Below, piece by piece: positions 1 through 25,416 of a stretch of 32,000 nt of DNA. The notes below the pieces were generated by a model. The model did not search any database, was not told where the DNA came from, and was given only the letters and a program-made list of their open reading frames with translations. This stretch comes from Candidatus Saccharimonadota bacterium (GTDB lineage: Bacteria > Patescibacteriota > Patescibacteriia > 2-12-FULL-60-25): assembly GCA_023898425.1 (NCBI GenBank), contig CP060222.1, positions 330,001 to 362,000 of the forward strand, written 5' to 3'. Each line of letters begins with the position of its first letter. Position 1 is the first letter of the stretch. A program made the position numbers and the translations under genes.

Positions 1-1120
1 AGGCACAGCGATTGAGGCATTGATTCTTGAAGCAAACCTCATTAAACACTATTGGCCTAAGTACAATGTCTTACTAAAAGACAATAAGAGCTTTATGTAT
101 TTGGTCATTACGGATGAAGAATATCCACGACCAATTCTTAAGCGCGCAACGGATCTACTTCCAGAAGAAGAAAAAACTTCGCTGGCCATTTTTGGACCGT
201 ATCTTTCAGCGCGCTCATTGCGCGTGGCGTTGGATTTGGTGCGTAAGGTTTTTCCGTGGTCGACTTGTGTGCCACCAAAACCCCCTTCCACAAATGTGGG
301 AAGGGGGCAGGGGGTAGGGGTTGCGAAGGCCTGTTTTGATTATCAAATAGGTCGTTGTCCCGGCGTATGCATTCGTAAAATTGATGCAAAGACGTATAAA
401 GCAACCATACGTCATCTGATAAAGTTTTTTGAAGGCAAAAAAGAAGACATTGTAAAAGGTTTGACCAAAGAAATGACAAAGCTCGCCAAAGCAGAAAGGT
501 TTGAAGAGGCAGCAAAGATTCGTAATCAACTTTTCTCGTTAGAACATATACAAGATATCGCACTTCTTATGCGTGATGAGCCTGAAGCGCGTACCATTAA
601 GCGTTCAGAAGGGGAGATTGATATTTATGGACGTATTGAAGGATATGATATTTCGCATATTAGTGGCACATCACAAGTGGCGAGTATGGTGGTCTTTCAA
701 AATGGCGCACCTGCTAAAGCGCAGTATCGTAAGTTTAAAATCAAAACTGTAGAGGGTTCCAATGACGTTGGTTCGTTAAAAGAAGTGCTTACACGTCGTT
801 TAAAGCATGACGAATGGCCGCTTCCGCAACTATTATTGATTGATGGTGGCAAGCCTCAAGTGCATGCTGTAGAGGAGGTGGTTCGTGAACTTGGCGTACA
901 GGTGCCTGTTGTTGGGATGGCAAAAGGGCCAGAGCGTAAACGTACGGATCTTATCTGCTCAGATCGGAGTCCAAGTTTATGTACATTATTAGAACCGCAT
1001 ATTGATTTGTTGACGCAAGTACGTGATGAATCGCATCGTTTTGCTATTACGTTTCATCGTAAAGTAAGGAGCGCCGCATTTATTGGTAAAAAATCATCTA
1101 CCAAAACGAAGCGTAAATAG
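1..1120 (+). CDS. uvrC: Excinuclease ABC subunit C (UvrC), 5'-truncated by the window edge; no C-terminal (HhH)2 domain
   Basis: The frame is open to nt 2 (GTAIEALILEANLIKHYWPKYN, the end of the GIY-YIG domain). It has a UVR-type helix (KEMTKLAKAERFEEAAKIRNQL) and RNase H-like endonuclease motifs (IEGYDISHISG, YRKFKIK, LLLIDGGKPQ, RDESHRFAITFHR). The stop comes about 20 aa after the HRFAITFHR motif. Confidence 0.9.
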   Translation, partial: GTAIEALILEANLIKHYWPKYNVLLKDNKSFMYLVITDEEYPRPILKRATDLLPEEEKTSLAIFGPYLSARSLRVALDLVRKVFPWSTCVPPKPPSTNVGRGQGVGVAKACFDYQIGRCPGVCIRKIDAKTYKATIRHLIKFFEGKKEDIVKGLTKEMTKLAKAERFEEAAKIRNQLFSLEHIQDIALLMRDEPEARTIKRSEGEIDIYGRIEGYDISHISGTSQVASMVVFQNGAPAKAQYRKFKIKTVEGSNDVGSLKEVLTRRLKHDEWPLPQLLLIDGGKPQVHAVEEVVRELGVQVPVVGMAKGPERKRTDLICSDRSPSLCTLLEPHIDLLTQVRDESHRFAITFHRKVRSAAFIGKKSSTKTKRK

Positions 1121-2379: not shown

Positions 2380-2811
2380 ATGTTTATCGGAGAATTTCAT
2401 CATAGTCTCGATGAAAAAGGCCGAATGTCTATTCCGGCGAAGTTTCGTGCTGCCCTCGCGGAGGGTGTCGTCGTCACTCGTGGTTTAGATCGCAGTCTCT
2501 TTCTTTATCCTAAACAGGAATGGGAAGTGCTTGCTGCAAAACTTGCTGCGCTTCCACTTGGTCAGGCTGATACTCGTGCTTTTGCACGTTTGATGCTAGC
2601 CGGTGCAATGGAAGCAGAAATCGATAAAGCGGGTCGCGTATTATTGCCAGAATATCTGCGTACCTATTCAGGGTTGCAGAAAAACGTTGTTGTTGCTGGT
2701 TTGTATAATCGTCTCGAAATTTGGGACGAAGATGCTTACGAAGCCTATGCTCGTCAAACCGAAGAGCAAGGTAATGCCATTGCAGAACGATTAACCGATC
2801 TAGGAGTATGA
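2380..2811 (+). CDS. mraZ: Transcriptional regulator MraZ
   Basis: MFIGEFHHSLDEKGRMSIPAKFR plus a second SpoVT/AbrB-like half (DKAGRVLLPEYLR). I chose ATG 2380 over the track start at 2347, which lies inside the repeat array. Confidence 0.93.
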   Translation: MFIGEFHHSLDEKGRMSIPAKFRAALAEGVVVTRGLDRSLFLYPKQEWEVLAAKLAALPLGQADTRAFARLMLAGAMEAEIDKAGRVLLPEYLRTYSGLQKNVVVAGLYNRLEIWDEDAYEAYARQTEEQGNAIAERLTDLGV

Positions 2812-3713
2812 GCCAATCCATCCATATCGCTGTGATGCTCGAGGAAACCATGCTTGGCCTCGAACCACATGATGGCGGTGTCTATGTTGACGGTACTCTT
2901 GGTGGCGCCACGCATACGCGTGAGTTGTTAAAGCGTTCAGCACCAACAGGTCGTGTCTATTCGTTTGATGTTGATCCACAAGCTCTTTTGAGAGCAAAGG
3001 AGACGCTCACTGAATACGGCGACCGATGGCAGGGGATAGAAGCAAACTTTCGCGCCATGGCAGATAGCCTACGTGAAAGAGGTGTGAACTCGGTAGACGG
3101 TATTCTGTTAGATCTCGGTTTCTCCTCTGATGAGATCTCAGATCCGAAAAAAGGTCTGTCTTTTCAGCTCGAAGGTCCACTCGATATGAGGCTTGGTCCA
3201 AAAGCAAATGAAGACGGCTTAACTGCTGCAGACATTGTAAATACGTGGAAGGTGACAGAGTTAACTGAAATGATCCGCAACTTTGGCGAAGAAAAGTTCG
3301 CCTTCAGAATTGCTACGGCTATTGCCGACGCGCGTCGCGTGTCCCGCATTACTCGTACGATTGAGCTCGCGGGGATTATCAAAGCTGCTGTCCCAGCCAA
3401 TTATGAACAAGGTCGCATTCACCCAGCTACAAGAACCTTTCAGGCCTTACGCATGGCAGTTAATGATGAGATTCAGTCGCTAAAACAGGCTATCGAGAGT
3501 GCTTATAGCATTCTCGCCCCTAATGGCCGTTTGGCGATCATCTCCTTTCACTCCATCGAAGATCGCGTAGTAAAACTCGCGCTCAAAGATGAAGAAAAAT
3601 GGTCAAATCTCTACAAAAGACCTTTGACACCAGGTGAGCAAGAACTCACCGAAAACCCGCGTTCACGTAGTGCAAAGCTGCGTATCGCATCAAAAAACGA
3701 ACCTTCACTATGA
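2808..3713 (+). CDS. rsmH: 16S rRNA (cytosine1402-N4)-methyltransferase RsmH
   Basis: HIAVMLEE...GVYVDGTLGG, LLDLGFSS, FHSIEDR and NPRSRSAKLR motifs. Its start overlaps the mraZ stop in an ATGA. Confidence 0.93.
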   Translation: MSQSIHIAVMLEETMLGLEPHDGGVYVDGTLGGATHTRELLKRSAPTGRVYSFDVDPQALLRAKETLTEYGDRWQGIEANFRAMADSLRERGVNSVDGILLDLGFSSDEISDPKKGLSFQLEGPLDMRLGPKANEDGLTAADIVNTWKVTELTEMIRNFGEEKFAFRIATAIADARRVSRITRTIELAGIIKAAVPANYEQGRIHPATRTFQALRMAVNDEIQSLKQAIESAYSILAPNGRLAIISFHSIEDRVVKLALKDEEKWSNLYKRPLTPGEQELTENPRSRSAKLRIASKNEPSL

Positions 3714-4090
3714 TACAAAATACACGTGCGCATTACGCCTATAGCCTACGCTCGCCACAGCAAGCGCTTGGTTTAGCATTGCCTTTAGGTAAGCGTCTCG
3801 CGCATGTTGCAGAACGTTCATGGGTATATTTACTCATTGGGCTTTCTGTTATTGGTATGGTCTCTTACGTGTTTCAGATGAATCACACAGCAACAAAAGG
3901 ATTTGCTTTACGTGATGAAGAATATCGTCTCGATCGCTTGCGTATGACCGTGGCTTCACTTGAAGACCAGGTCGCGCAAAAGCGCGCTATTCGAAGCATT
4001 GAGTCACGTGTAAGCGGTCTTGGGTATGTTGCTGCAGAACGTATGGAATTTGTTGATATCAATCGTGAAGGTGTAGCTGTCGCACGGTAA
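3710..4090 (+). CDS. FtsL-like bitopic cell-division protein (single TM plus coiled coil)
   Basis: Sits immediately after rsmH with an ATGA overlap. It has one TM helix (WVYLLIGLSVIGMVSYVF) followed by a heptad-like segment. The call rests on position and architecture only. Confidence 0.55.
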   Translation: MIQNTRAHYAYSLRSPQQALGLALPLGKRLAHVAERSWVYLLIGLSVIGMVSYVFQMNHTATKGFALRDEEYRLDRLRMTVASLEDQVAQKRAIRSIESRVSGLGYVAAERMEFVDINREGVAVAR

Positions 4091-4164
4091 CTTCGGGCAT
4101 GAGTTTGTCACTGTTCATTGATAGTGGCGCCCTCATGCCGGTAGTTACAATCGTAATCACCGAG

Positions 4165-4198
4165 ATAATCCTCCCTCATAGCGTGTAGGGAGGATTAT
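4165..4198 (+). terminator. Strong stem-loop after the ftsL-like gene (possible terminator or processing site)
   Basis: Perfect 12-bp stem, ataatcctccct (4165-4176) with agggaggattat (4187-4198), and a 10-nt loop. The tail is only tgtt, so it is not a textbook intrinsic terminator. Confidence 0.45.
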
Positions 4199-4207
4199 TG
4201 TTATAAT
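4199..4207 (+). promoter_or_regulatory. Extended -10 promoter (TGtTATAAT) positioned for a leaderless mRNA starting at ATG 4214
   Basis: TG at 4199-4200 and TATAAT at 4202-4207. Six nt separate the -10 from the A of ATG 4214. There is no SD sequence. Confidence 0.45.
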
Positions 4208-4213
4208 CAGCGT

Positions 4214-4600
4214 ATGTCAGCGCCACTTACATCTTCTTTCGGTATTATTCTTTCAGAGTTATTTGGCGTTATACCAAAAACGTTTTTTTGGTGGTATTCG
4301 GATGGGCTTACGCGCATTCTTGCATGGTCACAACAACGACTTTCGTTTCGTTGGCGTTCGCTTGCAGTACGTTCTTGGTCCAAGCACTTATTTCAGCCAA
4401 TGTATGGTCAATATGATTTTACGGGTAGAGCGATAAGTGTGGTGATGCGTTTTCTTGTTTTGTTGTGGAGATTGTTCGTACTGTTTTTCACGATATTACT
4501 CTACTTTATTGTCATCTTGCTCTGGTTTTTTGTCCCTGCTTTCGTCGTTGCATTGCTCGTTTTAAATAGTATGGCGGCACTTGGCTTTATTCGAATTTGA
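4214..4600 (+). CDS. Hypothetical small membrane protein (soluble N-terminal half, two C-terminal TM helices)
   Basis: 128-aa ORF ending 4 nt before the Clp-like gene. The C-terminus is hydrophobic (VVMRFLVLLWRLFVLFFTILLYFIVILLWFFVPAFVVALLVL). I recognise no family. Confidence 0.6.
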   Translation: MSAPLTSSFGIILSELFGVIPKTFFWWYSDGLTRILAWSQQRLSFRWRSLAVRSWSKHLFQPMYGQYDFTGRAISVVMRFLVLLWRLFVLFFTILLYFIVILLWFFVPAFVVALLVLNSMAALGFIRI

Positions 4601-4603
4601 TCT

Positions 4604-7267
4604 ATGGATATTCAACACATTCCTTGCGAAAACTGTCCTACCGATGAAGTAGGGAGCCTTTGTCAGCATTGCCAAGGGGCAAAGTTTGCATTGCTCGTTG
4701 ATAATACTGAGCAACTTGTTTGGTCAAAGGCTATTGAGCCATCACTCTTTGCAACAAGGCGCGTTCAAGCTATTGCTCGAAAAATAAGTGTCGCATTGAT
4801 TGTATTAAGTATTTTTGCTTGTCTTATTGGCCTTGTTTGGGTATTGGCAATGCCGTCAACACTTTTTTCATTAGGTCTCATTGTTTCTGGATCGACGTTT
4901 GGTTTTTTGTTCTGTGGTGTGCTAATTGCCTCGTTGTTGTTAGTCTTCCGTGCAGTGACGTGGTCTGATACGCAAAAGCTCATCCCACCGCTTGCAGTAA
5001 ATATTCCGGCAACGCCCTATATCCGAGAGGTTTCGCAATACCTCGATACGAGCGGTTGGCAAATATTACAGCTCGCCTATGACTTATCCTCAAAGCAAGA
5101 GCGTGCATTTCTCTCGCCGATACATGTATTTGCAGCGGCACTCACTTCTTCGCAGGGCGGCACGCTTCTATCTCGTCTCGGCACAACGTTTGAAGCTTGG
5201 AAGGCGCAACTCAGTCAGTTATTGGCGCGTATAGAATACGCGGATCATGGAAAGCCTGTTTTGTCGGACAATACACGTGAGGTTTTACTACGCGCCTATC
5301 TTTTTGCCAGAGAAAATCAACGACGCACGATTGGTGTATTAGATCTATTTCAAGCTGCGGTAGAGGTTGATGGTTCGATTCGAGATGCATTAGATGTTGT
5401 AGGTGTTCCTCCTGAAAGACTTTCGCAAGTAGCTCATTGGTTACGATTACAAGAGCAACTTATCGAAGATCATCGCGCTTTTCAGCAGCTCGCGCAATTA
5501 AAGCCAGATGCATCAATGGATCGTGCAATGCTTGCACATGCAACGCCACTCTTGGATCAGTATGGTGAAGATTTAACGCGCTCTGCACGTCATGATTATC
5601 TCTTTCCGCTCATTGGAAGAGACAAGGACATGGATCAGCTATTAAGAGGTTTTGAAAGCGGTCATCGCGCGATGACGATTATCGCTGATGCGGGTATTGG
5701 CAAACGAGCGCTTGTCGAAGGCCTCGCTCAAAGAATGGTCATCGAAGATGTGCCAGCTGTTTTATTTGATAAGAGAATGGTTGTTGTGGATGTTGCGCAT
5801 GTTCTTGCGGGGGGTGATCCTGCATATGCGCCGCAACGATTGCTAGAGCTTATTCGAGAAGCAGAAAGCTCTGGCAATATTTTGCTTGTTTTACAACAAA
5901 TTGATGCGTTATTACGTGCGTCTACAAATGGCATAGATCTTGCAGATATCTTGGCTTCTGATCTATCACAAGGGCGTTTAATGTTGCTCGCGACGACAAC
6001 GCCTGGTGCCTGGACCGAGATTATTGAGCCAAATGCGCTCAGCGCACAAATGAGTAAGCTTCTATTAGCCGAGCCAGAACAAGCAGAAGTTATGGAGTTA
6101 TTAATGGCAAAAGCAGGTGGTATAGAATATAAAACTCAAGTCTTTTTTACCTACGGCGCCTTAGAGCAGGCCTATACTTCAGCAAAGCGCTATATCAAAG
6201 ATGTACGTTTACCTAAAAGCGCGCTTCAGCTTATGACGGAGGCGGCTTCTTCTGTGCAACGCAAACGCAGTACAGGTGCCCTTGTTACTGAAGAAGATAT
6301 CGCGCAAATCATCCACGAAAAGACGCGCATTCCTGTAGAATCAATCAACTCAAACGAAAAAGAAAAGCTTCTCGGTTTAGAGGACCGTTTAAAGAAACGT
6401 GTAATTGGACAAGGAGAGGCGGTAAAAGCCGTATCTCAAGCGATGCGTCGTGCACGTGTTGATGTGCGTGAGGCGCGTCGTCCAATGGCAACATTCTTAT
6501 TCTTAGGACCTACAGGTATAGGTAAAACCGAGCTCGCAAAAGCATTAGCCTCAGAATATATTGGTGATGAAGCGTTTTTAGTACGTCTTGATATGTCCGA
6601 ATATCAACTCGCCTCATCGGTCTCTCGTCTCATTGGAGCTCCTGGCGACAATAAAGGCGGACTCTTAACAGAGGCGATTCGAAAACAACCCTTTTCTATT
6701 GTCTTGCTTGATGAGCTCGAAAAAGCACATCCAGATATACTCTCCTTATTTTTACAGGTGCTTGATGATGGTCGATTAACGGATGGTATTGGTAGAACGG
6801 TAGATTTTACAAATACGATTATTATCGCTACATCAAATGCTGGCGCAAGTTATATTCAGCAAGCCGTCAGAGAAGAAAAGTCTCTGGATATTATTAAGCG
6901 TGAACTATTAGAACGCGAATTACAAACCGTCTATCGCCCAGAATTTTTAAATCGTTTTGATGGGGTGATTGTATTCCGTCCACTTACATTAGACGAAGTA
7001 GAACAAATTACCTGGCTTCAAATTAATCGCTTAGCAAAAAACCTACAGACAAAGGGTATTGGGTTTACAGCAGATGACGAAGCAGTGCAGTGGCTCGCTC
7101 GCGAAGGCTTTGATCCGCAGTTTGGCGTAAGACCGCTTAAACGTCTTATTCAAGATAAGGTCGAAACAGAAATTGCGGACGTATTACTTCGTGGTGAGGT
7201 ATCACGTAAAGACACGCTTGTACTCGAAGAGGGTGGACACTTGCGTGTAGATAAATGGCAGGGTTAG
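4604..7267 (+). CDS. Membrane-anchored Clp/Hsp100-family AAA+ ATPase (zinc ribbon, TM helices, Clp_N repeats, degenerate D1, intact D2)
   Basis: N-terminal CENC-x8-CQHC and two hydrophobic helices (about aa 60-115), followed by Clp_N-like repeats. D1 aligns to ClpB/C (TPLLDQYGEDLT, LIGRD, EGLAQR) but reads ADAGIGKR at Walker A and LVLQQID at Walker B. D2 is canonical: GPTGIGKT, VLLDELEKAH, IIIATSN, RPEFLNRFD, GVRPLKR. Confidence 0.85.
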   Translation: MDIQHIPCENCPTDEVGSLCQHCQGAKFALLVDNTEQLVWSKAIEPSLFATRRVQAIARKISVALIVLSIFACLIGLVWVLAMPSTLFSLGLIVSGSTFGFLFCGVLIASLLLVFRAVTWSDTQKLIPPLAVNIPATPYIREVSQYLDTSGWQILQLAYDLSSKQERAFLSPIHVFAAALTSSQGGTLLSRLGTTFEAWKAQLSQLLARIEYADHGKPVLSDNTREVLLRAYLFARENQRRTIGVLDLFQAAVEVDGSIRDALDVVGVPPERLSQVAHWLRLQEQLIEDHRAFQQLAQLKPDASMDRAMLAHATPLLDQYGEDLTRSARHDYLFPLIGRDKDMDQLLRGFESGHRAMTIIADAGIGKRALVEGLAQRMVIEDVPAVLFDKRMVVVDVAHVLAGGDPAYAPQRLLELIREAESSGNILLVLQQIDALLRASTNGIDLADILASDLSQGRLMLLATTTPGAWTEIIEPNALSAQMSKLLLAEPEQAEVMELLMAKAGGIEYKTQVFFTYGALEQAYTSAKRYIKDVRLPKSALQLMTEAASSVQRKRSTGALVTEEDIAQIIHEKTRIPVESINSNEKEKLLGLEDRLKKRVIGQGEAVKAVSQAMRRARVDVREARRPMATFLFLGPTGIGKTELAKALASEYIGDEAFLVRLDMSEYQLASSVSRLIGAPGDNKGGLLTEAIRKQPFSIVLLDELEKAHPDILSLFLQVLDDGRLTDGIGRTVDFTNTIIIATSNAGASYIQQAVREEKSLDIIKRELLERELQTVYRPEFLNRFDGVIVFRPLTLDEVEQITWLQINRLAKNLQTKGIGFTADDEAVQWLAREGFDPQFGVRPLKRLIQDKVETEIADVLLRGEVSRKDTLVLEEGGHLRVDKWQG

Positions 7268-8337
7268 ATAAGACTATGAATCGCGAAACCCTTTATTTGA
7301 TTCTAGCTCTCGTGGGAGGTGCGAGCGCGCTTTTGTCTTGGTCGTTGGCTTTTGCAACACAGCGATTCGCTCGTCGTATTGAAGCGATAGATTATCCAAA
7401 GGGTGGGCGCAAAATCCATACCGTACCAACGCCCCTCTTAGGAGGGCTGGGGATAGGTCTTATTATTTTGATAGCATTTGGGGCTTTGTCGCTTTTTGTA
7501 AATGTTCCGCATTGGTCTATAACCGGGTTAATGATAGCGATGGTCATCCTATTGATCGGTGGTGCACTTGATGACCGGTATGACTTGCCGGCTAAGTATC
7601 AAATCATCTTTCCGGTTGCTGCGAGTGCTATTGCTGTATTTTTTGGGCTATCTATTCAATATATCACGAATCCTATTGGCGGTTCTATTTCGTTAGAGTA
7701 TCTCGTTGTTGGTGGGATAGCATTATTACCGAGTCTTCTGGCATTTTTTTGGTTATTAGGCGTGACCTATGCCACGAAAGTTATGGATGGTCTTGATGGT
7801 CTTGTTACGGGCCAAGTCGTTATTGGCGCATCACTTATTATTGCCTTGTCGCTAACGCAACGTTATTACCAGCCGAGTATGGCAATCCTTGCCGCGGTTG
7901 TCTGTGGTGCCTTTATCGGTTTCTTGCCTCATAACGTAAACCCAGCAAAACAATTTTTAGGTGAATCTGGGAGTACGCTCGCTGGTTTTTTGCTTGGTTC
8001 ACTCGCGATATTAAGTGGTGCAAAGCTTGCTACGGCACTTATGGTACTTGGCTTACCAATCGCCGATCTCTTTTTTGTCCTATTTGGAAGATTAAGGCGA
8101 GGCGTTTCTCTATTTAAGGGCGATGATTCTCACTTGCACCACAAGCTTATTAAGGCAGGACTTGATAAACGACACGCGGTCTATCTGTTGTGGTCGTTAA
8201 CGGCTCTTGCAGGTGCTGCGGGGCTTTTTGTGCAAACTCGAGGTAAGGCCCTTCTGTTTATCTTTTTGTGTGCTGTGACCGCAGGACTTTCTGCTTGGGC
8301 AGATGCAAGTTATAAGCAAAGACAAAAATCACTATGA
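7255..8337 (+). CDS. Glycosyltransferase family 4 polyprenyl-phosphate sugar-1-phosphate transferase (WecA/TagO-like MraY paralogue)
   Basis: Polytopic membrane protein with DDRYDL, KVMDGLDGLVTG, NVNPAKQFLGESGS and DSHLHHKL motifs. The start may be ATG 7255 (13-nt overlap with the Clp gene) or ATG 7276. Confidence 0.8.
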   Translation: MAGLDKTMNRETLYLILALVGGASALLSWSLAFATQRFARRIEAIDYPKGGRKIHTVPTPLLGGLGIGLIILIAFGALSLFVNVPHWSITGLMIAMVILLIGGALDDRYDLPAKYQIIFPVAASAIAVFFGLSIQYITNPIGGSISLEYLVVGGIALLPSLLAFFWLLGVTYATKVMDGLDGLVTGQVVIGASLIIALSLTQRYYQPSMAILAAVVCGAFIGFLPHNVNPAKQFLGESGSTLAGFLLGSLAILSGAKLATALMVLGLPIADLFFVLFGRLRRGVSLFKGDDSHLHHKLIKAGLDKRHAVYLLWSLTALAGAAGLFVQTRGKALLFIFLCAVTAGLSAWADASYKQRQKSL

Positions 8338-8801
8338 GCAAAAAATTATTACAAACGACAAGTATTGTATCAATAGCAATCATTATCTGTATCGGTACCT
8401 GGTATGCATCAAAACCGGCATCCGTACAAATGAGGCATGACAAAGAAGTCACGATCAATGGTGAATCGCTAAAGCTAGAAATAGCACAATCACCATCAGC
8501 AATCACGAGGGGATTAAGTGGGCGTAAAAAGATGGAAGAGGATGAAGGGATGCTCTTTATCATGCCAAATGTAGAAACGCAGACCTTTTGGATGAAAGAA
8601 ATGCAGTTTCCATTAGATATTGTCTTTTTAAGAGAGGGTCGAGTAGTGGACTTGGTGACATTGCAAAAACCAAGTCTGGTATCGATACCTACGCATCAGT
8701 CAAAAGAAATGGCAGACATGGTGCTAGAACTCAATGCAGGGAGGGCGACCGAGCTAAAACTTGAAGAGGGGACAAAGACAACATTAAACGAGCTAAGATA
8801 G
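8334..8801 (+). CDS. DUF192 domain protein with N-terminal membrane anchor
   Basis: GLSGRKKMEEDEGMLFIMP...FWMKEMQFPLDIVFL is the DUF192 signature. Its start overlaps the upstream stop in an ATGA. Confidence 0.8.
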   Translation: MSKKLLQTTSIVSIAIIICIGTWYASKPASVQMRHDKEVTINGESLKLEIAQSPSAITRGLSGRKKMEEDEGMLFIMPNVETQTFWMKEMQFPLDIVFLREGRVVDLVTLQKPSLVSIPTHQSKEMADMVLELNAGRATELKLEEGTKTTLNELR

Positions 8802-8816
8802 CTTGTTTAATGTTGT
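8778..8816 (+). terminator. Long hairpin spanning the DUF192 stop codon (possible operon terminator)
   Basis: A 17-bp stem, 8778-8794 with 8800-8816 (acaacattaaacgagct / agcttgtttaatgttgt, one G-U pair), and a 5-nt loop. The U-tail is weak (tgttatc). Confidence 0.4.
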
Positions 8817-8975
8817 TGTTATCAAGCCAATGGTGAAAGAGCGTAGGGAAACATAGCTGCAGGTATTAGCCCGTATTTACAGATGTATTGAAATTCAGTA
8901 CTGCAGATAAGATTAGTAGGTAATTTATTACTATTCTAGTGTTTTTAGGGCAAACCTTAGCCAAGAGCTCTTTTA

Positions 8976-9387: not shown

Positions 9388-9474
9388 GTTTATTATTACC
9401 TAGGCTGTACATGGTGTCATGTACTATAATATGGTACGTTAGTATCAGTACTTACTTATCATTTAAAAAAAATT

Positions 9475-10128
9475 ATGGACGGCAAACACTTTTCTCTTAT
9501 CACCATCGCGATGGTTATCCTGCTCGGTATCGTAGGCCTTGGTTTCATGCAAATGAACACGAATAACACGCTTAGCACGATCTCTAATCGTCTTGTTGTC
9601 GTTGAGCAACAAATAAAACAAGAGCCTGTTAAGACTGAAGAGGTTACTGCTGCTGAAGAAGCAACCACGCCATGCAAAGGTGATTGTGATGCGGGAATCG
9701 TTGAATACAAGGATTACCAATGGGACTTTTCATTGCAGTATCCAGAGGATTATACGGTGGCTTTGGTAGATGACGGGTTTTACTCAGGTCAAAAGAACCT
9801 TCGTCTCACAAGCAAGCCTGGCACACTCTTTCTTGCTGGTGGAGGATCAGCTAAACCAATGGCTGGTGAATTTGTCGAAGGTATTCAGTTAGATATTCGT
9901 GAGCTTGGCGAAGGTCAGATTCACTTCTCAGGAGAAGAAACGTTTGTTGACACAAAAAATCCTCTCGTAAAAGAATTTATTTCTGCTTGTGATGGTCCTG
10001 GATGTGATACGACACGAATTTTCTACATCAGCACCAGAAAAGGTAGTTATGTGATGGATGTAAATTTTAGCAAAGGATATCCATACACAAGTGATATCGA
10101 CGGCATCATTGCATCGATCAAAGAGTAG
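9475..10128 (+). CDS. Hypothetical membrane-anchored or exported protein
   Basis: N-terminal TM/signal anchor (FSLITIAMVILLGIVGLGF), an acidic linker and a Cys-containing globular part. No family recognised. A terminator follows it. Confidence 0.55.
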   Translation: MDGKHFSLITIAMVILLGIVGLGFMQMNTNNTLSTISNRLVVVEQQIKQEPVKTEEVTAAEEATTPCKGDCDAGIVEYKDYQWDFSLQYPEDYTVALVDDGFYSGQKNLRLTSKPGTLFLAGGGSAKPMAGEFVEGIQLDIRELGEGQIHFSGEETFVDTKNPLVKEFISACDGPGCDTTRIFYISTRKGSYVMDVNFSKGYPYTSDIDGIIASIKE

Positions 10129-10187: not shown

Positions 10188-10637
10188 ATGTTGTACAAAA
10201 TCGCCAACACCTTCCGTCGTCTCTATTGGTGGATTCGTCGCCCGATCACTATCGGTGCTCGCGCTATCGTTACGGACGGGAAGAGTGTTTTATTGGTGAA
10301 TCATTCGTATCTAAAGAATTGGTATTTACCCGGTGGGGGAGTTGGTCGTGGTGAGACGCTGCAAGATGTAGTGCGTCGTGAGCTTAAAGAAGAGGTGGGT
10401 TTTGTTTATGATGGTGCTTTGAACTTGCTCGCTACCCATTCAAATTTTGGTGAGTATAAGAATGATCACATCGTACTTTTTGAAGTGAAGACCTCGGTTT
10501 TTGAGCCAAAGGGAGGTGGAGAAGTGAAGGAGGCGAAGTTTTTTGCTTTCGATCATTTGCCGGTTGATATTTCACCAGCGACAAAAAGACGTATTGAAGA
10601 GTATCTAAAGATGAAGCCACGGGAAGAGATGTGGTAA
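10188..10637 (+). CDS. NUDIX hydrolase
   Basis: Canonical Nudix box GGGVGRGETLQDVVRRELKEEVGF. Confidence 0.85.
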   Translation: MLYKIANTFRRLYWWIRRPITIGARAIVTDGKSVLLVNHSYLKNWYLPGGGVGRGETLQDVVRRELKEEVGFVYDGALNLLATHSNFGEYKNDHIVLFEVKTSVFEPKGGGEVKEAKFFAFDHLPVDISPATKRRIEEYLKMKPREEMW

Positions 10638-10638
10638 C

Positions 10639-10670
10639 AAAAAATCAGCCCATAAGGCTGACTTCTTTTT
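10639..10670. terminator. Bidirectional terminator between the convergent NUDIX and recR genes
   Basis: Stem tcagcc (10645-10650) with ggctga (10656-10661). An A6 run precedes it and a T-rich run follows, so each strand sees a U-tail. Confidence 0.6.
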
Positions 10671-10724
10671 CCCTGTCCACGAAGTGGAAAGGGATACCCC
10701 AGCAAAGCGCAGGGAGGGTAAAGT

Positions 10725-11327
10725 CTATGATTCACTCCTATGCTGAAACGCGTCATTTAACGTATGCGCATCCGCATATTCAAGTGCTGCACCCGTCGGT
10801 AAGCCACGTGCGAGACGTGTAACGCGCACATTCATCGAGCTCAAGTGCTTTTTCAAATACATCGCGGTTACATCACCAGGGATATTTGCGTCTAAGGCGA
10901 GAATCACTTCTTTGATAGGTGAATCTGCATGAGAGAGGCGATTGATGAGTTTGGCGATATTAAGCGTTTCAGGTGTGCGACCTTCGATAGGGTCGATGGT
11001 GCCACCAAGAACGAGATAGCGTCCTTTAAAGATACCTGCGTCTTCGATTACACGAATATCTGGGCTGGTCGCGATAACACAAAGCACGGATTGATCACGG
11101 CGTGAGTCAGAGCAAATGCTGCAAGGGGAGGATTCGGACCACATTCCACACGTATCACAGAGATGCATGCGCTCGGCGAGCTGGGTGAGAGCGCGTGAGA
11201 ATTGGTCGACGACGTTTTTTGGTTGGTTCACGAGCCAATAGGCATAACGCAAAGCCGCCCTCGGACCAACGCCGGGGAGGCTGTCGAAGGCGGCTGCAGC
11301 TTGCCGTAATGGCTCAGGTAGGGACAT
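10725..11327 (-). CDS. recR: Recombination protein RecR
   Basis: LPGVGPRAALRYAYWL (HhH), a C4 zinc finger (CDTCGMWSESSPCSIC) and a Toprim region (VLCVIATSPDIRVIE). Confidence 0.93.
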   Translation of the reverse strand: MSLPEPLRQAAAAFDSLPGVGPRAALRYAYWLVNQPKNVVDQFSRALTQLAERMHLCDTCGMWSESSPCSICSDSRRDQSVLCVIATSPDIRVIEDAGIFKGRYLVLGGTIDPIEGRTPETLNIAKLINRLSHADSPIKEVILALDANIPGDVTAMYLKKHLSSMNVRVTRLARGLPTGAALEYADAHTLNDAFQHRSES

Positions 11328-11330
11328 TGA

Positions 11331-15306: not shown

Positions 15307-15993
15307 ATGACCCAGGGACCACACCACGTAGCCATGATTATGGATGGCAATCGCCGCTGGGCAAAAGAACGCGGTCTTTCGACGATTGACGGTCATAAGG
15401 CCGGTTACGAAACAATGAAAAAGGTAGGGGATTGGTGTATCGATCGTGGAGTCAAAGTCCTTACCGTTTATGCGTTTTCTACAGAAAACTGGAAACGCTC
15501 AGAGACCGAAGTAAACTTTTTGATGCTCTTACTCGAAACAGCGCTCGAAAAAGAAATCGAATATTTTCTTACGCGACAAATTCGTTTGAGAATTATCGGT
15601 AGACGTGAAGGTTTTTCAAAAAAGATTCTTGATCTTATTGATAATGCAGAAAAAGAGACTGAGCATTTTCAAGATTTTACGTTCTGTATTTGTTTGAACT
15701 ATGGCGGACGTCAAGAAATTACTGATGCTGTAAAGGCTATTGTTACCTCGGGTATTTCTGTTGATGAAATTACCGAAGATACCGTAGCATCACATCTTTA
15801 CTGGTCTAATATGCCAGGTCCTGATCTCATTATTCGGACTTCAGGTGAAGAGCGCTTGAGTGGATTTTTGCTTTGGCAAGCAGCATATAGTGAGCTCATG
15901 TGGATGAAAAAGTATTGGCCAGATCTCGAAGAACGAGATGTTGATGCGTCTTTTGAACGGTTCGCAGAACGGTCGCGTCGATTTGGTAAATAG
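15307..15993 (+). CDS. uppS: Undecaprenyl (isoprenyl) diphosphate synthase
   Basis: HVAMIMDGNRRWA, YAFSTENWKR, IRTSGEERLSGFLLWQ. Confidence 0.93.
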   Translation: MTQGPHHVAMIMDGNRRWAKERGLSTIDGHKAGYETMKKVGDWCIDRGVKVLTVYAFSTENWKRSETEVNFLMLLLETALEKEIEYFLTRQIRLRIIGRREGFSKKILDLIDNAEKETEHFQDFTFCICLNYGGRQEITDAVKAIVTSGISVDEITEDTVASHLYWSNMPGPDLIIRTSGEERLSGFLLWQAAYSELMWMKKYWPDLEERDVDASFERFAERSRRFGK

Positions 15994-16079: not shown

Positions 16080-16643
16080 ATGTCTGAACAAGAGTTAGAT
16101 CATCAGAGCGTAGGGGTGATTATTGCCTGCCCAGGGCTATATAAATTTCTTTTTCAGGTAAACGATGAAGGTCATCCTGACCCTCGTTGTAGAGGAAGAA
16201 TGCAACTCTGGGGTGGTCATATGAAGGAAGAGGATGACAACAATCCTTTTCTCGCGCTGAAGCGCGAACTCTCAGAAGAGTGGTGTGATCAAAGCGTTGT
16301 AGAAGAAGTGTCTCGATGCGTAAGTCGACAGACTCCGCGACGATTTATTCTTCAATCTAACGGAGGCTCACCTCATCCATACAGGTATAGTTTAGATGTA
16401 TTTCTTGCCCTGGCCCCTAGAGAACTCTTTATGGATTGGTTTATTCGCCTCGAGCATCAGGGGTTCAACGAAGGGCGTATGGTATTTCTTACGCGGGAGA
16501 TGATTAAGTACTATATCTCTGATAAAGACTTGCAGAGGCTTTTCTTGGGTAATCTACATGAGGTCATGAAGTATTACTTTGAAAGCGAAGAGTCTTTGAG
16601 CGGTCTTCAGACATTTGCGCGCTCTAGTCGTCCACATGTCTGA
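16080..16643 (+). CDS. Hypothetical protein with a divergent NUDIX-like box
   Basis: WGGHMKEEDDNNPFLALKRELSEEW resembles GX5EX7REUXEEXGU, but with three extra residues before the RE. Confidence 0.5.
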   Translation: MSEQELDHQSVGVIIACPGLYKFLFQVNDEGHPDPRCRGRMQLWGGHMKEEDDNNPFLALKRELSEEWCDQSVVEEVSRCVSRQTPRRFILQSNGGSPHPYRYSLDVFLALAPRELFMDWFIRLEHQGFNEGRMVFLTREMIKYYISDKDLQRLFLGNLHEVMKYYFESEESLSGLQTFARSSRPHV

Positions 16644-17118: not shown

Positions 17119-17146
17119 TTGTCAAGAAAGCCAAAATCAGTAAAAT
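17119..17146 (+). promoter_or_regulatory. Candidate promoter for the NifU-like gene
   Basis: TTGTCA (17119-17124), a 16-nt spacer, TAAAAT (17141-17146). ATG 17158 lies 11 nt downstream, giving a very short leader. Confidence 0.45.
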
Positions 17147-17157
17147 TAGCTATATCT

Positions 17158-17433
17158 ATGATAAAAACCCAAGAACAGTTTAAAGAAGAGGTTGAAGGTG
17201 TCCTTGAGGTTGTTCGCCAGGGCTTGGCGTTTCACAACGGCAGTGTAGAACTTGTTGATGCTGATCCTGTCACGGGACGGGTAGAAGTGCGTTTTCAGGG
17301 TAACTGCGTCGGTTGTTCGATGGCAGATTTTACCTTCAAAGCCGGTGTAGAAGAGGTGCTATATGAGATGATTCCAGAAGTGAGAGAAGTTGTCTTAGCG
17401 CCCCCAGAAGAATCTATTGAAAAGAGTGCGTAA
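17158..17433 (+). CDS. NifU C-terminal-domain (Nfu-type) Fe-S cluster protein
   Basis: HNGSVELVD...VRFQGNCVGCSM is the CxxC NifU_C signature. The start was moved to ATG 17158 because the track start (TTG 17119) coincides with the -35 box. Confidence 0.8.
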   Translation: MIKTQEQFKEEVEGVLEVVRQGLAFHNGSVELVDADPVTGRVEVRFQGNCVGCSMADFTFKAGVEEVLYEMIPEVREVVLAPPEESIEKSA

Positions 17434-17451: not shown

Positions 17452-17829
17452 ATGAATTGGAGCACTTGGTTGCTATCCGCAAAGCTCGCGTGGGGAAAGC
17501 CTTTTTTGCGTTGGTCAACAATTATTTCGGTAGCATTATGCTTGGTGACGAGTGGCTTGTTTATCGCAACCGTTCTACCAGAAGCGATTCAAAATAACGC
17601 TTTTGCTTTTCATTATAACGTCTATTTTGGAATCGATGAGGTAAAGACTTGGCTCTGGGTCTTTTTCTTTCCGGGTATTTGGTTTGTGCTCACAATGCTA
17701 GATAGCTTGGTCGCCTACGGCTTTTATCGAACGGATGCTGTACTTGCGAATACAAGTGCGGCGTTAGCACTCGTCTGGGCTTTACCTTGGATGAGTTTTC
17801 TTTTTTATCTCTCTTTACTTAATACATAA
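17452..17829 (+). CDS. Hypothetical integral membrane protein (3-4 TM helices)
   Basis: 125-aa hydrophobic ORF closely followed by mraY. No family recognised. Confidence 0.5.
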   Translation: MNWSTWLLSAKLAWGKPFLRWSTIISVALCLVTSGLFIATVLPEAIQNNAFAFHYNVYFGIDEVKTWLWVFFFPGIWFVLTMLDSLVAYGFYRTDAVLANTSAALALVWALPWMSFLFYLSLLNT

Positions 17830-17852: not shown

Positions 17853-18908
17853 ATGACTATTGAACCTATTTTGCTTGCGCGTACTCTTGTAATTACTGGA
17901 GCGGCTTTTCTTATCTCGGTTATTTCGATGCCGCTCTTAATTAAGTTATTACGCAAGTATAAAATGGGTAAGTCTATTCGTGCAGCAGAGAATGCTCCGA
18001 TCATGGCATCGATGCATAAGGCAAAGGCCGGCACACCTACCATGGGTGGTATTGTGATTTGGGCAACGGTGCTTGTCCTTGTGCTTGGTTTAGCTGGCGC
18101 CTGTTCATTATTTGGCGAAAACTCACTCGCTTGCCAAATGAACTTTTTGTCTCGTGGTCAAACCTGGTTGCCGCTTGGTTTAATGTTTGGTGCAGCACTC
18201 ATTGGCTTGGTGGATGACTATCTAAACATTTTACGCATTGGTTCTAAAGGAGGTGGTTTACGCGAACGCGAACGCATCATTTCCTATGGTCTTATTGCTG
18301 TTGTTGGTGCTTTATGGTTTTTCTTAAAGCTCGGTTGGGATTATTTTCATATTCCGTTTATTGGAACGTTTGAGATTGGTTGGTACTACGTGCCATTCTT
18401 TATTCTTGTTATTATCTCTACATCACACTCGGTCAATGTTACAGACGGTCTTGATGGTTTAGCGGGTGGAATTTTGCTTTCATCTTTTGGTGCTTTTTCT
18501 ATCATTGCTTGGTCACAAGGACTCTATGATATTGCCACGTTATGTGGTGCGATTTGTGGAGCTCTCTTAGGCTTTCTTTGGTACAATATCAACCCTGCCG
18601 ATGTCTTTATGGGGGATACAGGTGCCATGTCACTAGGAACAACACTTGGTGTGATTGCCTTACTCACGAATCAGCCGTTGCTTTTACTTGTTATTGGACT
18701 TCCGTATGTTGTTGAGAGTTTGTCTGTTATCATTCAGCTTACGAGCAAAAAACTTCGTAATGGCAAAAAAGTATTTAAAGTAGCTCCTATTCATCATCAT
18801 TTTGAAGCTATTGGTTGGAGTGAACCTCGTGTCGTGATGAGGTTTTGGATGATCTCATTTGTGATGGCAGGTATCGGTATTATTTTAGGTCTCCTCGATA
18901 AAACGTAA
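17853..18908 (+). CDS. mraY: Phospho-N-acetylmuramoyl-pentapeptide transferase MraY
   Basis: GTPTMGG, VDDYLNI, NVTDGLDGLAGG, NPADVFMGDTGAMSLG, APIHHHFE. Confidence 0.93.
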   Translation: MTIEPILLARTLVITGAAFLISVISMPLLIKLLRKYKMGKSIRAAENAPIMASMHKAKAGTPTMGGIVIWATVLVLVLGLAGACSLFGENSLACQMNFLSRGQTWLPLGLMFGAALIGLVDDYLNILRIGSKGGGLRERERIISYGLIAVVGALWFFLKLGWDYFHIPFIGTFEIGWYYVPFFILVIISTSHSVNVTDGLDGLAGGILLSSFGAFSIIAWSQGLYDIATLCGAICGALLGFLWYNINPADVFMGDTGAMSLGTTLGVIALLTNQPLLLLVIGLPYVVESLSVIIQLTSKKLRNGKKVFKVAPIHHHFEAIGWSEPRVVMRFWMISFVMAGIGIILGLLDKT

Positions 18909-18913: not shown

Positions 18914-20062
18914 ATGAGAACACCGTCGTTACTTGATCGTTTACGATCTCTAGACCCGATCATCGTCGGAGCGACGGCGTTTTTGTTGATTGTCGGTTTA
19001 GCAATCCTCATGTCTGCTACAGGTCCAATCGCTTTTCAGCGCTGGCAAGATAGCTTGCATATGGTGAAGCGTCAGCTTGTACTGGGTGTCTTTCCGGGAA
19101 TACTTGCTTTCTTGTTATTTTCTCTCATTGATTTTCGTATTTGGAAGCGGCTCGCTGTTTTTGGTTTTATAGGCAGCCTTGTATTGTTGCTCGCTGTCTA
19201 TACGCCGCTTGGTGTAAGGGTAGGTGGATCATTAAGTTGGCTTAATATTGCTGGTATCCAATTTCAACCGTCGGAGTTTGTAAAATTTGGTCTGCTCCTT
19301 TACTTCGCCGCATGGTTATCGTCGCGCACAGCTAAACAAGTCAAAGATTTACACGAGGGACTTCTGCCGTTTATCGGTTCATTGGGCGCTATTGTGTTGT
19401 TGCTTATCGTGCAGCCTGATACAGGTTCTATGGTGGTGATTGCAGGGATGTCAGGCATGATGTACCTCTTGTCTGGTGCGCCACTCTGGTGGTTTGGAGC
19501 ACTCGGTACTTCTGGCGTTGGTTTAGTTTGGTTATTGATCAAAACATCCGAGTATCGTGCAGCGCGTTTTATGACGTTTTTGCATCCGGAGCTTGATCCT
19601 CAAGGCATTGGTTATCACATCAATCAAGCCATGCTGGCTATCGGCTCTGGTGGATGGTTTGGTCTAGGTTACGGCAAGTCACGTCAAAAGTTTCTTTATT
19701 TACCAGCTGTTGAATCGGACTCCATCTTTGCTGTGATGGCTGAGGAGTTGGGGCTCATTTTTTGCAGCGTTGTGCTTGCGGTTATTGGTGTATTGGTGTG
19801 GCGTTGTTTTCAAATTTCGAAACAATCGAATGATAGTTTTGCAAAATATCTTTCTGCTGGAGTTGGTATTTGGATTGCCCTACAAACAGTCATTAATATT
19901 TTTTCGATGCTTGGATTAATGCCGATGACAGGTGTTACGCTTCCTTTTATCTCTTACGGTGGTACTTCTTTGACGGTTTTACTTGCTGCTATCGGCTTGG
20001 TAGCTTCTTTGCCAAGAAACGCCTCTTCAAGAGGAGTTGATCTGTTAAAAAAACGACTATGA
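18914..20062 (+). CDS. ftsW: SEDS-family peptidoglycan glycosyltransferase FtsW
   Basis: FQPSEFVK, QPDTGS, GYGKSRQKFLYLPAVESDSIFAV and PFISYGGTS motifs. It sits between mraY and murG. Confidence 0.9.
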   Translation: MRTPSLLDRLRSLDPIIVGATAFLLIVGLAILMSATGPIAFQRWQDSLHMVKRQLVLGVFPGILAFLLFSLIDFRIWKRLAVFGFIGSLVLLLAVYTPLGVRVGGSLSWLNIAGIQFQPSEFVKFGLLLYFAAWLSSRTAKQVKDLHEGLLPFIGSLGAIVLLLIVQPDTGSMVVIAGMSGMMYLLSGAPLWWFGALGTSGVGLVWLLIKTSEYRAARFMTFLHPELDPQGIGYHINQAMLAIGSGGWFGLGYGKSRQKFLYLPAVESDSIFAVMAEELGLIFCSVVLAVIGVLVWRCFQISKQSNDSFAKYLSAGVGIWIALQTVINIFSMLGLMPMTGVTLPFISYGGTSLTVLLAAIGLVASLPRNASSRGVDLLKKRL

Positions 20063-21171: not shown

Positions 21172-22178
21172 ACAGTAAATTAGCGCAACTCAAAAAACAG
21201 GTTGATGATAAAACGATTAATGACCTCTTTTCTCATACAAAAAGATCGTGATGAATGGTGGTAAGCGTGTACGACCTTACATGGCCGCCTTAAGCTTTGA
21301 AGCCTATGGCGGCAAATTAAATGAGTCTGTCTGGAGAGTGTTGTTAGGCATTGAGTTATTTCATGCTTTCGCTCTTGTGCATGATGATATTATGGATTTA
21401 GGCACGGATAGACATGGGACGCCAACCATTCATGAATTTGCAAAACAAACCTTTAAGAAACAAAAACGTATTGGTGATCTTCAGCATATTAGTCAGTCAC
21501 ATGGGATTTTGATCGGTGATATGCTTTTCGTTTGGGCCAATGAATGTATTTTTAATCAATCAAAACTTGATCGAAATATTTTGATTGCATTACAACAAAT
21601 TTATACCGAAATGAATCAAGAGGTAATGCTTGGGCAAATGCTTGATGTAGATGGTATGGCTCGAGCAACAGTAGATGACTCGCATGTCTTGCTAAAAACC
21701 TCAATGAAAACAGCCGGATATACCTTCGTCCAACCTTTAAGAATGGGATGGGCATTGGCAGGATCTCCGAAAAAATTCGCGTCATTTGCAGAGTCATTTG
21801 GTCGACCACTAGGCATTGCTTTTCAGATTCAAGATGACTTGCTCGATCTTATAGGGACGGCTGAAGAGCTGGGTAAGCAGCCATTCTCCGATTTGCGCGA
21901 TGGCCAACATACGCTTTTTTTCGCAATACATTTTTACAAACGGAACAAAGAAACAGAAAGAAACCTTGCGAAGCTTCATGCGCTCATCCATTGATAAAAA
22001 GAACGCTGAGAGTGTTTTTGCTCTTTTTGAGGAAAGTGGGGCATTTGAGATGATTACAAAAAAGATGAATGATTATTTTAAAAAAGCAGAAAAAGCAATT
22101 CGTCTTTCTGGATTGAGTATAGAAAAACAAAAAGGATTCATTGAGCTCTATGAGAAAATCTGTTCTCGTATAAGTTAA
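21114..22178 (+). pseudogene. trans-Polyprenyl diphosphate synthase (GGPP/FPP synthase, CrtE-like), two frameshifts as assembled
   Basis: Three pieces. Piece 1 is MHTLSTFKDVFDTRLEKYL... (21114-21251, frame 0). Piece 2 is ORF 21248-21994 (GGKRVRP, FARM LVHDDIMDLGTDRHG, SARM FQIQDDLLD). Piece 3 is ORF 21900-22178. Lengthening the A5 run at 21239-21243 to A6 and shortening the T7 run at 21915-21921 to T6 restores one protein of about 354 aa. Confidence 0.8.
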
Positions 22179-22179
22179 T

Positions 22180-25380: not shown

Positions 25381-25416
25381 GGTCAAAGCGTAGCATGTTG
25401 GCTATCATTTTGTCTT

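Follow-up and report, generated by a model that had tools for sequence, protein, structure and literature searches.

A 32,000-nucleotide stretch of DNA from Candidatus Saccharimonadota bacterium (NCBI GenBank assembly GCA_023898425.1, contig CP060222.1, positions 330,001 to 362,000; called the window below, with coordinates counted from its first letter) was found to carry the gene for an 887-aa Clp/Hsp100-like ATPase directly behind a gene for a 128-aa small membrane protein. By the fold and domain order deduced from its sequence, the 887-aa protein belongs to the Clp/Hsp100 superfamily; its partner family is new. It fails the defining features of ClpB, ClpC, ClpA and ClpE. Clp/Hsp100 machines are the textbook case of threading by pore loops. 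The 887-aa protein represents a large conserved Clp branch in which the catalytic ring is kept, the gripping tyrosines are lost, the ATPase is fixed to the membrane and the partner is obligate. The reading put forward here, with slightly less than even confidence, is that of a ClpP-independent, D2-only, membrane-anchored Hsp100 variant with an obligate small membrane partner, which more likely remodels a complex of the membrane or envelope than threads proteins. The features of the two genes are listed below.

4214-4600, + strand: gene for the 128-aa small membrane protein (open reading frame, ORF; no Pfam match)
4604-7267, + strand: gene for the 887-aa Clp/Hsp100-like ATPase (Pfam, alignment, AlphaFold2, Foldseek)
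4625-4672, + strand: zinc ribbon C8xxC11-x8-C20xxC23 (read in sequence)
4784-4957, + strand: transmembrane (TM) hairpin, TM1 at about residues 61-83 and TM2 at about 98-118 (hydropathy, AlphaFold2, homologues)
5030-5401, + strand: Clp_N-like double four-helix repeat, residues 143-266 (Pfam Clp_N, AlphaFold2)
5543-6343, + strand: degenerate D1, residues 314-580 (alignment to ClpB/ClpC)
5684-5707, + strand: D1 Walker A, GEPGVGKT in ClpB/ClpC and ADAGIGKR here
5882-5905, + strand: D1 Walker B equivalent LLVLQQID, ILFIDE in ClpB/ClpC and LLVLQQ here
D1 arginine pair: ALERRFQ in ClpB/ClpC and ALSAQMS here
D1 pore loop: AKYRGEFE in ClpB/ClpC and GDPAYAPQ here (KYR replaced by GDP)
6344-7267, + strand: D2, residues 581-887, predicted to be catalytically intact (motifs compared with ClpB/ClpC)
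6629-6676, + strand: truncated D2 pore-1 loop LIGAPGDNKGGLLTEA, with PGYV (4 residues) deleted
D2 pore-1 loop comparison: GAPPGYVGYEEGG in ClpB/ClpC and GAPGDNKGG here (GAPPGYVG replaced by GAPGD)

Catalytic modules and pore loops

The Pfam scan of the 887-aa protein gave Clp_N, AAA_lid_9, AAA_2 (2.8e-50) and ClpB_D2-small (3.2e-22), and no match to UVR. Motifs were counted after 75 non-identical full-length locus homologues had been aligned with four ClpB/ClpC references; a second set of 85 full-length cluster representatives is described further below. The original prediction, a note made earlier from the same sequence, had described D1 as inactive, and the alignment agreed. The Walker B glutamate was kept in 0 of the 75 relatives, the Walker B Asp-Glu pair in 0 of the 85 representatives, and the arginine pair was replaced by serine, alanine or threonine plus lysine. 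The Walker A lysine was retained in 74/75 relatives and the adjoining threonine or serine in 39/75. Judging from these motifs, D1 is unable to hydrolyse ATP, and may still bind nucleotide in roughly half of the members. The D1 pore loop was without an aromatic residue in 70/75 relatives. Mean identity among the relatives was 54-58% for D1 (57% for D1-large, pairwise) and 73% for D2-large. These levels suggest that both modules are under selection and that D1 is conserved although dead.

D2 of the window carries the Walker A motif GPTGIGKT, the Walker B motif LLDELEKA, the arginine finger YRPEFLNRFD and the sensor 2 motif GVRPLKR. Walker A was found as GPTGxGKT in 74 of the 75 relatives, and Walker B (LDE-EKA), RPEFLNRFD and GARPLRR were essentially invariant. 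D2 had been called fully canonical; this description fits the invariant catalytic motifs but not the pore-1 loop, from which PGYV is deleted and the tyrosine is gone. No aromatic residue was present between S672 and F697 of the 887-aa protein. The loop was altered in every relative (75/75), shortened by four residues in almost all and without an aromatic residue in 68/75. Among the 85 representatives, 73 had no aromatic residue in the loop and 0 had GYVG, and the loop was variable in length, mostly shortened. In the clade of the window the loop is a charged GD(E/N)(R/K)GG turn. In class-I Clp/Hsp100 proteins, both modules have functional Walker motifs (A and B) and an arginine finger, a state that D2 retains and D1 does not; both also have aromatic pore-1 loops (KYR in D1, GYVG in D2), which are gone from both modules of the 887-aa protein.

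The elements that couple Clp/Hsp100 proteins to their partners were likewise missing on alignment with ClpB and ClpC, as had been claimed. The M-domain was absent: 116 ClpB residues and 57 ClpC residues had no counterpart after residues 554-559. The 12-aa ClpP loop of ClpC was absent after residue 758 (after IIIATSN) and was found in none of the 75 relatives, in keeping with the ClpP independence proposed earlier.

It is very improbable that the protein is an ordinary ClpC/ClpB chaperone, or the ATPase subunit of a Clp protease, that has diverged fast in a reduced genome. The source name of the protein, 'ATP-dependent Clp protease ATP-binding subunit (ClpC)', would fit such a protein, as would the alignment of D2 with ClpC/ClpB at E of about 1e-90 and a fold matching ClpC/ClpB protomers (Foldseek comparison of the AlphaFold2 protomer with ClpC1/ClpB chains, target-normalised TM-scores up to 0.85 and E down to 5e-55). 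However, the ClpP loop, M-domain and UVR motif are missing, D1 is dead, the pore tyrosines are gone and a TM anchor has been added. In addition, no NCBIfam cut-off was reached by the 887-aa protein (528/1232 for ClpB, TIGR03346; 449/993 for ClpA, TIGR02639). These differences are kept across about 200 sequence clusters, which points to a stable derived state and not to drift. The label 'ClpC / Clp protease ATP-binding subunit' is misleading for these proteins.

N-terminal half and membrane anchor

The AlphaFold2 model of the 887-aa protein had a mean predicted local distance difference test (pLDDT) score of 79.8. In the ribbon region it contained strands at residues 2-5, 28-32 and 36-39. In 63/75 relatives, two CxxC motifs lie ahead of the transmembrane region, and the ribbon was present in 56/85 representatives. 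TM1 and TM2 had Kyte-Doolittle means over 19 residues of 2.3-3.0 and were modelled as helices 46-82 and 98-119. Arginine and lysine residues (R52, R53, R59, K60 and R116) flank the hairpin on its necessarily cytoplasmic sides, so both the ribbon and the ATPase would be intracellular and the external loop short. A hydrophobic hairpin was found in 75/75 locus homologues, a transmembrane segment in 83/85 representatives and none in the ClpB/ClpC references, which bears out the membrane localisation suggested before.

The Clp_N match was marginal in Pfam (21.6 bits against a cut-off of 20.7), and precomputed matches to PF02861 were present in all relatives. AlphaFold2 gave 7 helices of at least 4 residues within 149-266, with pLDDT values of 83-91 save for a single dip to about 71; behind them comes a long conserved helix at 270-299. 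The ribbon, the two hydrophobic helices and the Clp_N repeats of the original prediction were all recovered, the last with a marginal Pfam score.

The 128-aa partner protein

No match to the 128-aa protein was found in Pfam, NCBIfam or PADLOC. The family has at least 685 homologues, most of them unnamed and the few with a source name called 'hypothetical protein'. Its invariant residues include W26, W27, Y28, G31, W55, P62-M63-Y64-G65, G71, R72, S75, R79 and R86. The AlphaFold2 model (pLDDT 92) consists of long helices at 5-49 and 69-122. The C-terminal half is hydrophobic, and the second helix is so strongly hydrophobic that it is predicted to be transmembrane. No significant structural neighbour of the model was found in a Foldseek structure search. 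A hairpin of the ESCRT-III/PspA type was considered and found to be unsupported, as Asgard ESCRT-IIIB, Vipp1 and PspA appeared at E = 6-9 with probabilities of 0.2 or less. The 128-aa protein would be the likeliest direct partner of the Clp protein, as anchor, adaptor or client, and its family merits a family entry of its own.

Conservation of the gene pair

A profile of the small protein was scanned against one genome per species; relatives were found in 225 genomes, and 80 loci (numbered with L below) were fetched. Locus counts cover the species loci that were testable for each feature (denominators 78, 60, 55 and 79). The small gene was directly followed by a Clp homologue in 78/78 loci, the two genes usually overlapping at stop and start codon or lying a few nucleotides apart. 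With 75 non-identical relatives and 78/78 species loci, the architecture and gene order recur beyond chance. The gene order was identical in contigs reached via the Clp protein and via the small protein. The pair was intact despite wholly different flanks in L029, L082, L083 and L086, where tRNA-guanine transglycosylase, DUF11 proteins, glycerol-3-phosphate dehydrogenase and FtsW were found. In one locus on a 1.0-Mb contig (L001) the small-gene homologue was frameshifted into ORFs 9448-9816 and 9681-9848, with a called product of only 53 aa; a sequencing error or a pseudogene would account for it.

The neighbours of the pair in the window are as follows.

2347-2811, + strand: mraZ (Pfam MraZ, 1.2e-40)
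2808-3713, + strand: rsmH (Pfam Methyltransf_5, 2.5e-94)
3710-4090, + strand: FtsL-like bitopic protein, 126 aa (NCBIfam FtsL_Actino, 23.7 bits, below cut-off)
7255-8337, + strand: WecA/TagO-type polyprenyl-phosphate N-acetylhexosamine-1-phosphate (HexNAc-1-P) transferase, GT4 (Pfam Glycos_transf_4, 4.6e-26)
8334-8801, + strand: DUF192 protein (Pfam DUF192, 1.8e-27)

The FtsL-like protein has one predicted transmembrane segment at residues 37-57, and the DUF192 protein has an N-terminal hydrophobic anchor or signal at residues 4-23. The block from the 128-aa gene through the Clp gene and GT4 to DUF192 was found as claimed, the ORFs lying at their given places and the overlaps being present: the 128-aa and 887-aa genes are separated by 3 nt, the 887-aa and GT4 genes overlap by 13 nt, and the GT4 and DUF192 genes overlap by 4 nt. 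The mraZ-rsmH-ftsL-like trio lies immediately upstream, and of ftsI, murE and murF none was found in the window, where a split murD is the only such gene; both points agree with the earlier description. The GT4 protein scored 104 bits with NCBIfam wecA versus 43 bits with mraY. By these profile scores it is a WecA/TagO paralogue and not MraY. The true mraY, at 17853-18908, scored 246.6 bits, over its NCBIfam cut-off, and is followed by ftsW and murG.

Across the species loci, the mraZ-rsmH-ftsL-like trio was upstream of the pair in 51/55, GT4 downstream of the Clp gene in 52-53/60 and DUF192 downstream in 51/60, so that the proposed envelope/division neighbourhood is conserved. These flanks are usual but not obligatory. 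In four species (L018, at 10597-11328; L030; L041; L056) a WecG/TagA transferase sits at the position of GT4. WecG/TagA catalyses the step immediately after that of TagO/WecA in the synthesis of wall teichoic acid and enterobacterial common antigen. An aminotransferase gene comes next after the WecG/TagA-family gene in the same four loci. In L001 and L007, a Mur ligase and MurB come after DUF192. Insertions recur at the junction of the ftsL-like and small genes, a hot-spot seen in L012, L024, L037, L047, L006 and L060. The ten inserts scanned, from gaps of 1-3 kb, encode a HAD hydrolase, an ornithine/aspartate carbamoyltransferase (OTCase), two pentapeptide-repeat proteins and six ORFs without a Pfam match. 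An ftsI gene hidden in these gaps was considered and rejected, since none of the ten inserts matched a penicillin-binding or transpeptidase family.

The uvrC gene lies a few genes 5' of mraZ in the window (20-1120) and in L001, L002, L004, L006, L007 and L008. At the opposite end, L21, recR, ybaB and dnaB were found in L008, and the same genes minus dnaB in L004, where the locus ends first. The recurrence of uvrC and of L21-recR-ybaB(-dnaB) suggests that the wider synteny is likewise conserved.

Extent and evolution of the family

The family is sharply set apart from ordinary ClpB/ClpC: full-length bit scores fell from 768 to 421 between the two, and with the N-terminal half plus D1 as query they fell from 316 to 147 at the family boundary. 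Word-indexed searches with the Clp protein yielded mostly ordinary ClpB/ClpC and no more than 13-15 members of the family; an exhaustive phmmer search with residues 1-330 gave 193 clusters at 50% identity (E <= 1e-3). The 85 full-length cluster representatives were 805-1231 aa long, most of them 850-940 aa. Named homologues came from Magasanikbacteria, Uhrbacteria or 'Patescibacteria group' assemblies, and homologues were labelled 'ATP-dependent Clp protease ATP-binding subunit' or 'ClpC' in their sources. The pair is specific to a lineage of Patescibacteria (Uhrbacteria, Magasanikbacteria and relatives), which are ultra-small groundwater bacteria. Many of the assemblies with a Patescibacteria-type locus (L013, L018, L020, L021 and others) are labelled 'uncultured Gammaproteobacteria bacterium', and one (L070) 'Candidatus Methylomirabilis sp.'; these are probably mislabelled or mis-binned metagenome-assembled genomes. 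A literature search found no paper describing the membrane-anchored Clp or 128-aa family, and a search on DUF192 was likewise unhelpful. The remark that the architecture is not that of a characterised system is in line with this search and with the NCBIfam scores.

Within the family, all members inspected, those with diverged flanks among them, had a dead D1, and the D2 loop ranged from intact to fully eroded. This distribution suggests that D1 was inactivated earlier and that the D2 pore loop eroded later. In L083 (Uhrbacteria; 6028-8757), where the Clp gene is paired with the small gene, the D2 loop is of canonical length (GAPVGYTGG), and D1 is dead (FLDN, ATVF). The family forms an evolutionary series, with D1 dead throughout and D2 pore loops from intact in L083 to eroded in the clade of the window, which is at the eroded end. 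L083 is a natural intermediate for the meaning of pore-loop loss.

Proposed function

In the preferred interpretation, the 128-aa and 887-aa proteins would form a two-component, membrane-embedded AAA+ machine. The TM hairpin would hold the large subunit at the cytoplasmic face of the membrane, where it would assemble into a ClpB/ClpC-like ring with D1 as a structural or assembly tier and D2 as the sole motor. By its sequence the large subunit is unable to dock ClpP and lacks the M-domain that couples to Hsp70. Turnover of ATP in D2 would drive the remodelling, or the assembly and disassembly, of a membrane complex and not the processive threading of polypeptides. Such a logic would be akin to that of Torsin with its membrane cofactors. 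From the neighbourhood only, the target may tentatively be placed in the divisome or in the earliest membrane-bound steps towards a lipid-linked wall polymer (WecA/TagO, TagA).

Remodelling is preferred over threading because the aromatic pore-1 residues are lost in both rings. Characterised Clp/Hsp100 enzymes depend critically on aromatic pore loops when they unfold proteins processively (PMC5425593). Torsins, which are related to Clp/Hsp100 proteins, are without aromatic pore loops, depend on membrane cofactors and have been proposed to remodel rather than to thread (PMC5425593). As neither ring keeps an aromatic pore-1 loop, canonical threading of polypeptides is doubtful for the clade of the window. 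The earlier suggestion of an unfoldase or extractor is weakened to that extent; its membrane site, its independence of ClpP and its dead D1 stand.

Several points weigh against a remodelling machine of this kind. L083 keeps GAPVGYTGG and about 12/85 representatives keep an aromatic residue after GAP, which makes a threading motor the probable ancestor; in the present clade, threading by non-aromatic loops is possible. Unlike Torsin, D2 here has an intact arginine finger and sensor 2. It is the adjacency of the genes alone that suggests an interaction between the small protein and the Clp protein. The link to the envelope and to division comes from the neighbourhood, the pair appears to have its own promoter, and the ftsL boundary is a hot-spot for insertions.

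A true threading unfoldase or membrane extractor, similar to FtsH or Msp1, in which D2 pulls its clients by means of non-aromatic loops, is somewhat unlikely but has points in its favour. Its clients could be divisome or envelope proteins, or the 128-aa protein itself, which looks tail-anchored. The face formed by the N-domain and D1, which is the entry side in ClpB/ClpC, adjoins the membrane; the Clp_N domain for substrates or adaptors is retained; and the catalytic motifs of D2 are all invariant. Aromatic pore residues in L083 and in some distant members indicate that threading was probably the ancestral mode. However, the shortened D2 loop has no aromatic residue in 68/75 relatives and the D1 loop none in 70/75, in a class of enzymes whose processive unfolding is critically dependent on such loops (PMC5425593), and the D2 loop is charged (GDERGG) and not hydrophobic.

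The protein could also be a scaffold or regulator that is gated by nucleotide and does little mechanical work, in which ATP binding and slow hydrolysis in D2 switch the oligomeric state and thereby control how active the neighbouring WecA/TagO-type transferase or divisome proteins are, or where they are placed. Loss of the pore loops fits a switch rather than a motor. Moreover, GT4 overlaps the stop codon of the Clp gene in the window and follows it in most loci, and TagA substitutes for it in four species. We regard such a switch as quite improbable, as several lineages (L082, L086 and the L029/L083 context) have the pair but no GT4, TagA or DUF192, and a catalytic set kept so strictly and completely, arginine finger and sensor 2 included, speaks for real turnover. 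It overlaps with the remodelling machine preferred here, and the two are hard to tell apart computationally.

The remodelling machine may be drawn in a more specific form, which we consider rather unlikely: a bacterial, Torsin-like, non-threading Hsp100 ring, anchored in the membrane, with D1 as a dead scaffold, a D2 motor that does without pore tyrosines and an obligate small subunit, which remodels or gates the divisome or the complex initiating the wall polymer, and which is a core envelope or division factor of a Patescibacteria lineage at the place where ftsI normally follows ftsL. The pair could become a tractable prokaryotic system for the work done by Clp-type rings without threading, a question that is still open for Torsins. 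The envelope and division of Patescibacteria are almost unstudied, and the pair is a core lineage-specific two-gene module that adjoins ftsL and the first enzymes of the lipid-linked glycopolymer pathway.

Comparison with known systems

The 887-aa protein resembles class-I Clp/Hsp100 proteins in having Clp_N, two AAA+ modules and a D2-small domain. It differs from them in the added ribbon and TM hairpin, the degenerate D1, the missing D2 pore tyrosine and the obligate partner gene. The long coiled-coil M-domain that ClpB carries within the small domain of D1 is absent; ClpB, like the 887-aa protein, has no ClpP loop. Of ClpC, both the short UVR-type M-domain and the ClpP loop are absent. ClpA is similar in having no M-domain and in a colinear alignment of residues 307-866 with ClpA 159-725, but ClpA has active D1 and D2 and an IGL ClpP loop; D1 is dead here and no added ClpP loop was seen, the loop having been compared in the ClpB/ClpC alignment. 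ClpE and ClpX have an N-terminal Cys4 zinc-binding module ahead of the AAA+ part. They differ in being soluble and in having a ClpP loop and pore tyrosines, whereas in the 887-aa protein two TM helices separate the ribbon from the ATPase. ClpE in the PDB (29hb) matched the 887-aa protein in two stretches, best in D2.

The likeness to Torsin/LAP1, FtsH/Msp1 and NSF/PEX1-PEX6 is in design logic only. Torsin with LAP1 or LULL1 shares an AAA+ module at the membrane, the absence of aromatic pore loops, a membrane protein as partner (a putative one here) and a degenerate AAA-like module. Torsins differ in that they are eukaryotic proteins of the lumen of the endoplasmic reticulum with a single, ClpB-D2-like module and no arginine finger of their own, whereas here the arginine finger is present and the degenerate module, D1, is part of the same chain. 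The PDB search gave no torsin chain at E <= 1e-20. In FtsH, Msp1/ATAD1 and Bcs1, as would be the case here, an N-terminal TM anchor holds an AAA+ hexamer at the surface of the membrane, where it acts on membrane proteins. These proteins belong to other AAA+ clades and have one ATPase module and no Clp_N or D2-small domain; FtsH and Msp1 retain aromatic pore loops, and FtsH bears a protease domain. In NSF (D2) and PEX1/PEX6 (D1), one ring, degenerate or merely nucleotide-binding, has a role in assembly, and the other ring is the motor. NSF and PEX1/PEX6 differ in being soluble members of unrelated clades that retain the pore loops of the motor ring.

A role in defence was considered and rejected. 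The PADLOC profiles DolB and PDC-M37B (ClpB-like, defence) matched the D2 region at E of about 1e-31, a generic AAA_2 similarity; the 128-aa partner had no PADLOC match, and the gene context is a conserved one of housekeeping genes rather than a defence island.

Promoter and hairpins upstream of the pair

The intergenic region 4091-4213 was found to form two hairpins (fold z = -7.1) and to contain a candidate promoter.

4087-4148, + strand: imperfect hairpin with 26-nt arms and 77% complementarity, directly after the stop codon of the ftsL-like gene
4165-4176 / 4187-4198, + strand: perfect 12-bp hairpin, ATAATCCTCCCT-(10 nt)-AGGGAGGATTAT, with the loop motif AGCGTG
4199-4207, + strand: extended -10 box TGtTATAAT, which abuts the 12-bp hairpin and ends 6 nt 5' of the ATG at 4214

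The 12-bp hairpin and the extended -10 box had both been predicted and were found. The hairpin, the -10 box and the ATG recur almost unchanged in L009 and L010, although protein identity is just 64-76%; the hairpin with 26-nt arms was present in L010 and absent in L009. TGnTAnnnT ending 5-8 nt 5' of the start codon was found in 61/79 species loci, in 51 of them at exactly 6 nt, and its background rate was 0.26% per position. The promoter had been missed by a simple promoter/terminator scan because it has no -35 box. With the -10 box ending 6 nt before the ATG, the mRNA of the 128-aa gene would be leaderless, and the pair probably has a dedicated promoter. The 12-bp hairpin appears terminator-like and would close the mraZ unit. 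A separate transcription unit is supported by the unrelated genes that are inserted at exactly this boundary in some relatives. The earlier term 'envelope operon' therefore holds for the conserved neighbourhood but not for membership in the mraZ operon, against which the putative promoter, the terminator-like hairpin and the insertions all argue. The 17-bp hairpin claimed to follow the block was not recovered; only a 10-nt palindrome was found there (fold z 0.01 for 8799-8940).

In many relatives, GC-rich hairpins and T-runs with a (C/A)GCGTG loop were observed (for example L011, L013, L022, L026, L035, L040, L048, L051 and L054). The spacing between this hairpin and the -10 box varies among the relatives. 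The (C/A)GCGTG hairpin may be a recognition element for a protein or an RNA rather than a plain terminator. A search of the whole window with Rfam at the gathering threshold gave one tRNA only, and no known RNA element in the upstream hairpins.

Other features of the window

A second piece of division and cell-wall genes was found about 9 kb downstream, with uppS at 15307-15993, mraY at 17853-18908, ftsW at 18914-20062 and murG at 20059-21171. Small unannotated ORFs lie amid it at 16080-16643, 17119-17433 and 17452-17829. Straight after murG follows an isoprenoid/carotenoid-type cluster (21248-25386), unexpected for a reduced Patescibacteria genome, with the following genes.

21248-21994: polyprenyl synthetase
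22180-23037: squalene/phytoene synthase
23030-24553: amine-oxidase-type desaturase
24550-25386, minus strand: UbiA prenyltransferase

A 229-aa ORF at 25417-26106 contains only the N-terminal domain of DNA photolyase, and no FAD-binding C-terminal domain was detected in it. Further downstream, two ORFs in place of one were found for each of three genes: murD (28568-28981 with 28896-29384), a TagA/TarA/WecG transferase (29560-29967 with 29976-30269) and glutamyl-tRNA synthetase (30488-31186 with 31414-31809). The three split neighbours in 28568-31809 could be assembly frameshift errors or real pseudogenes.

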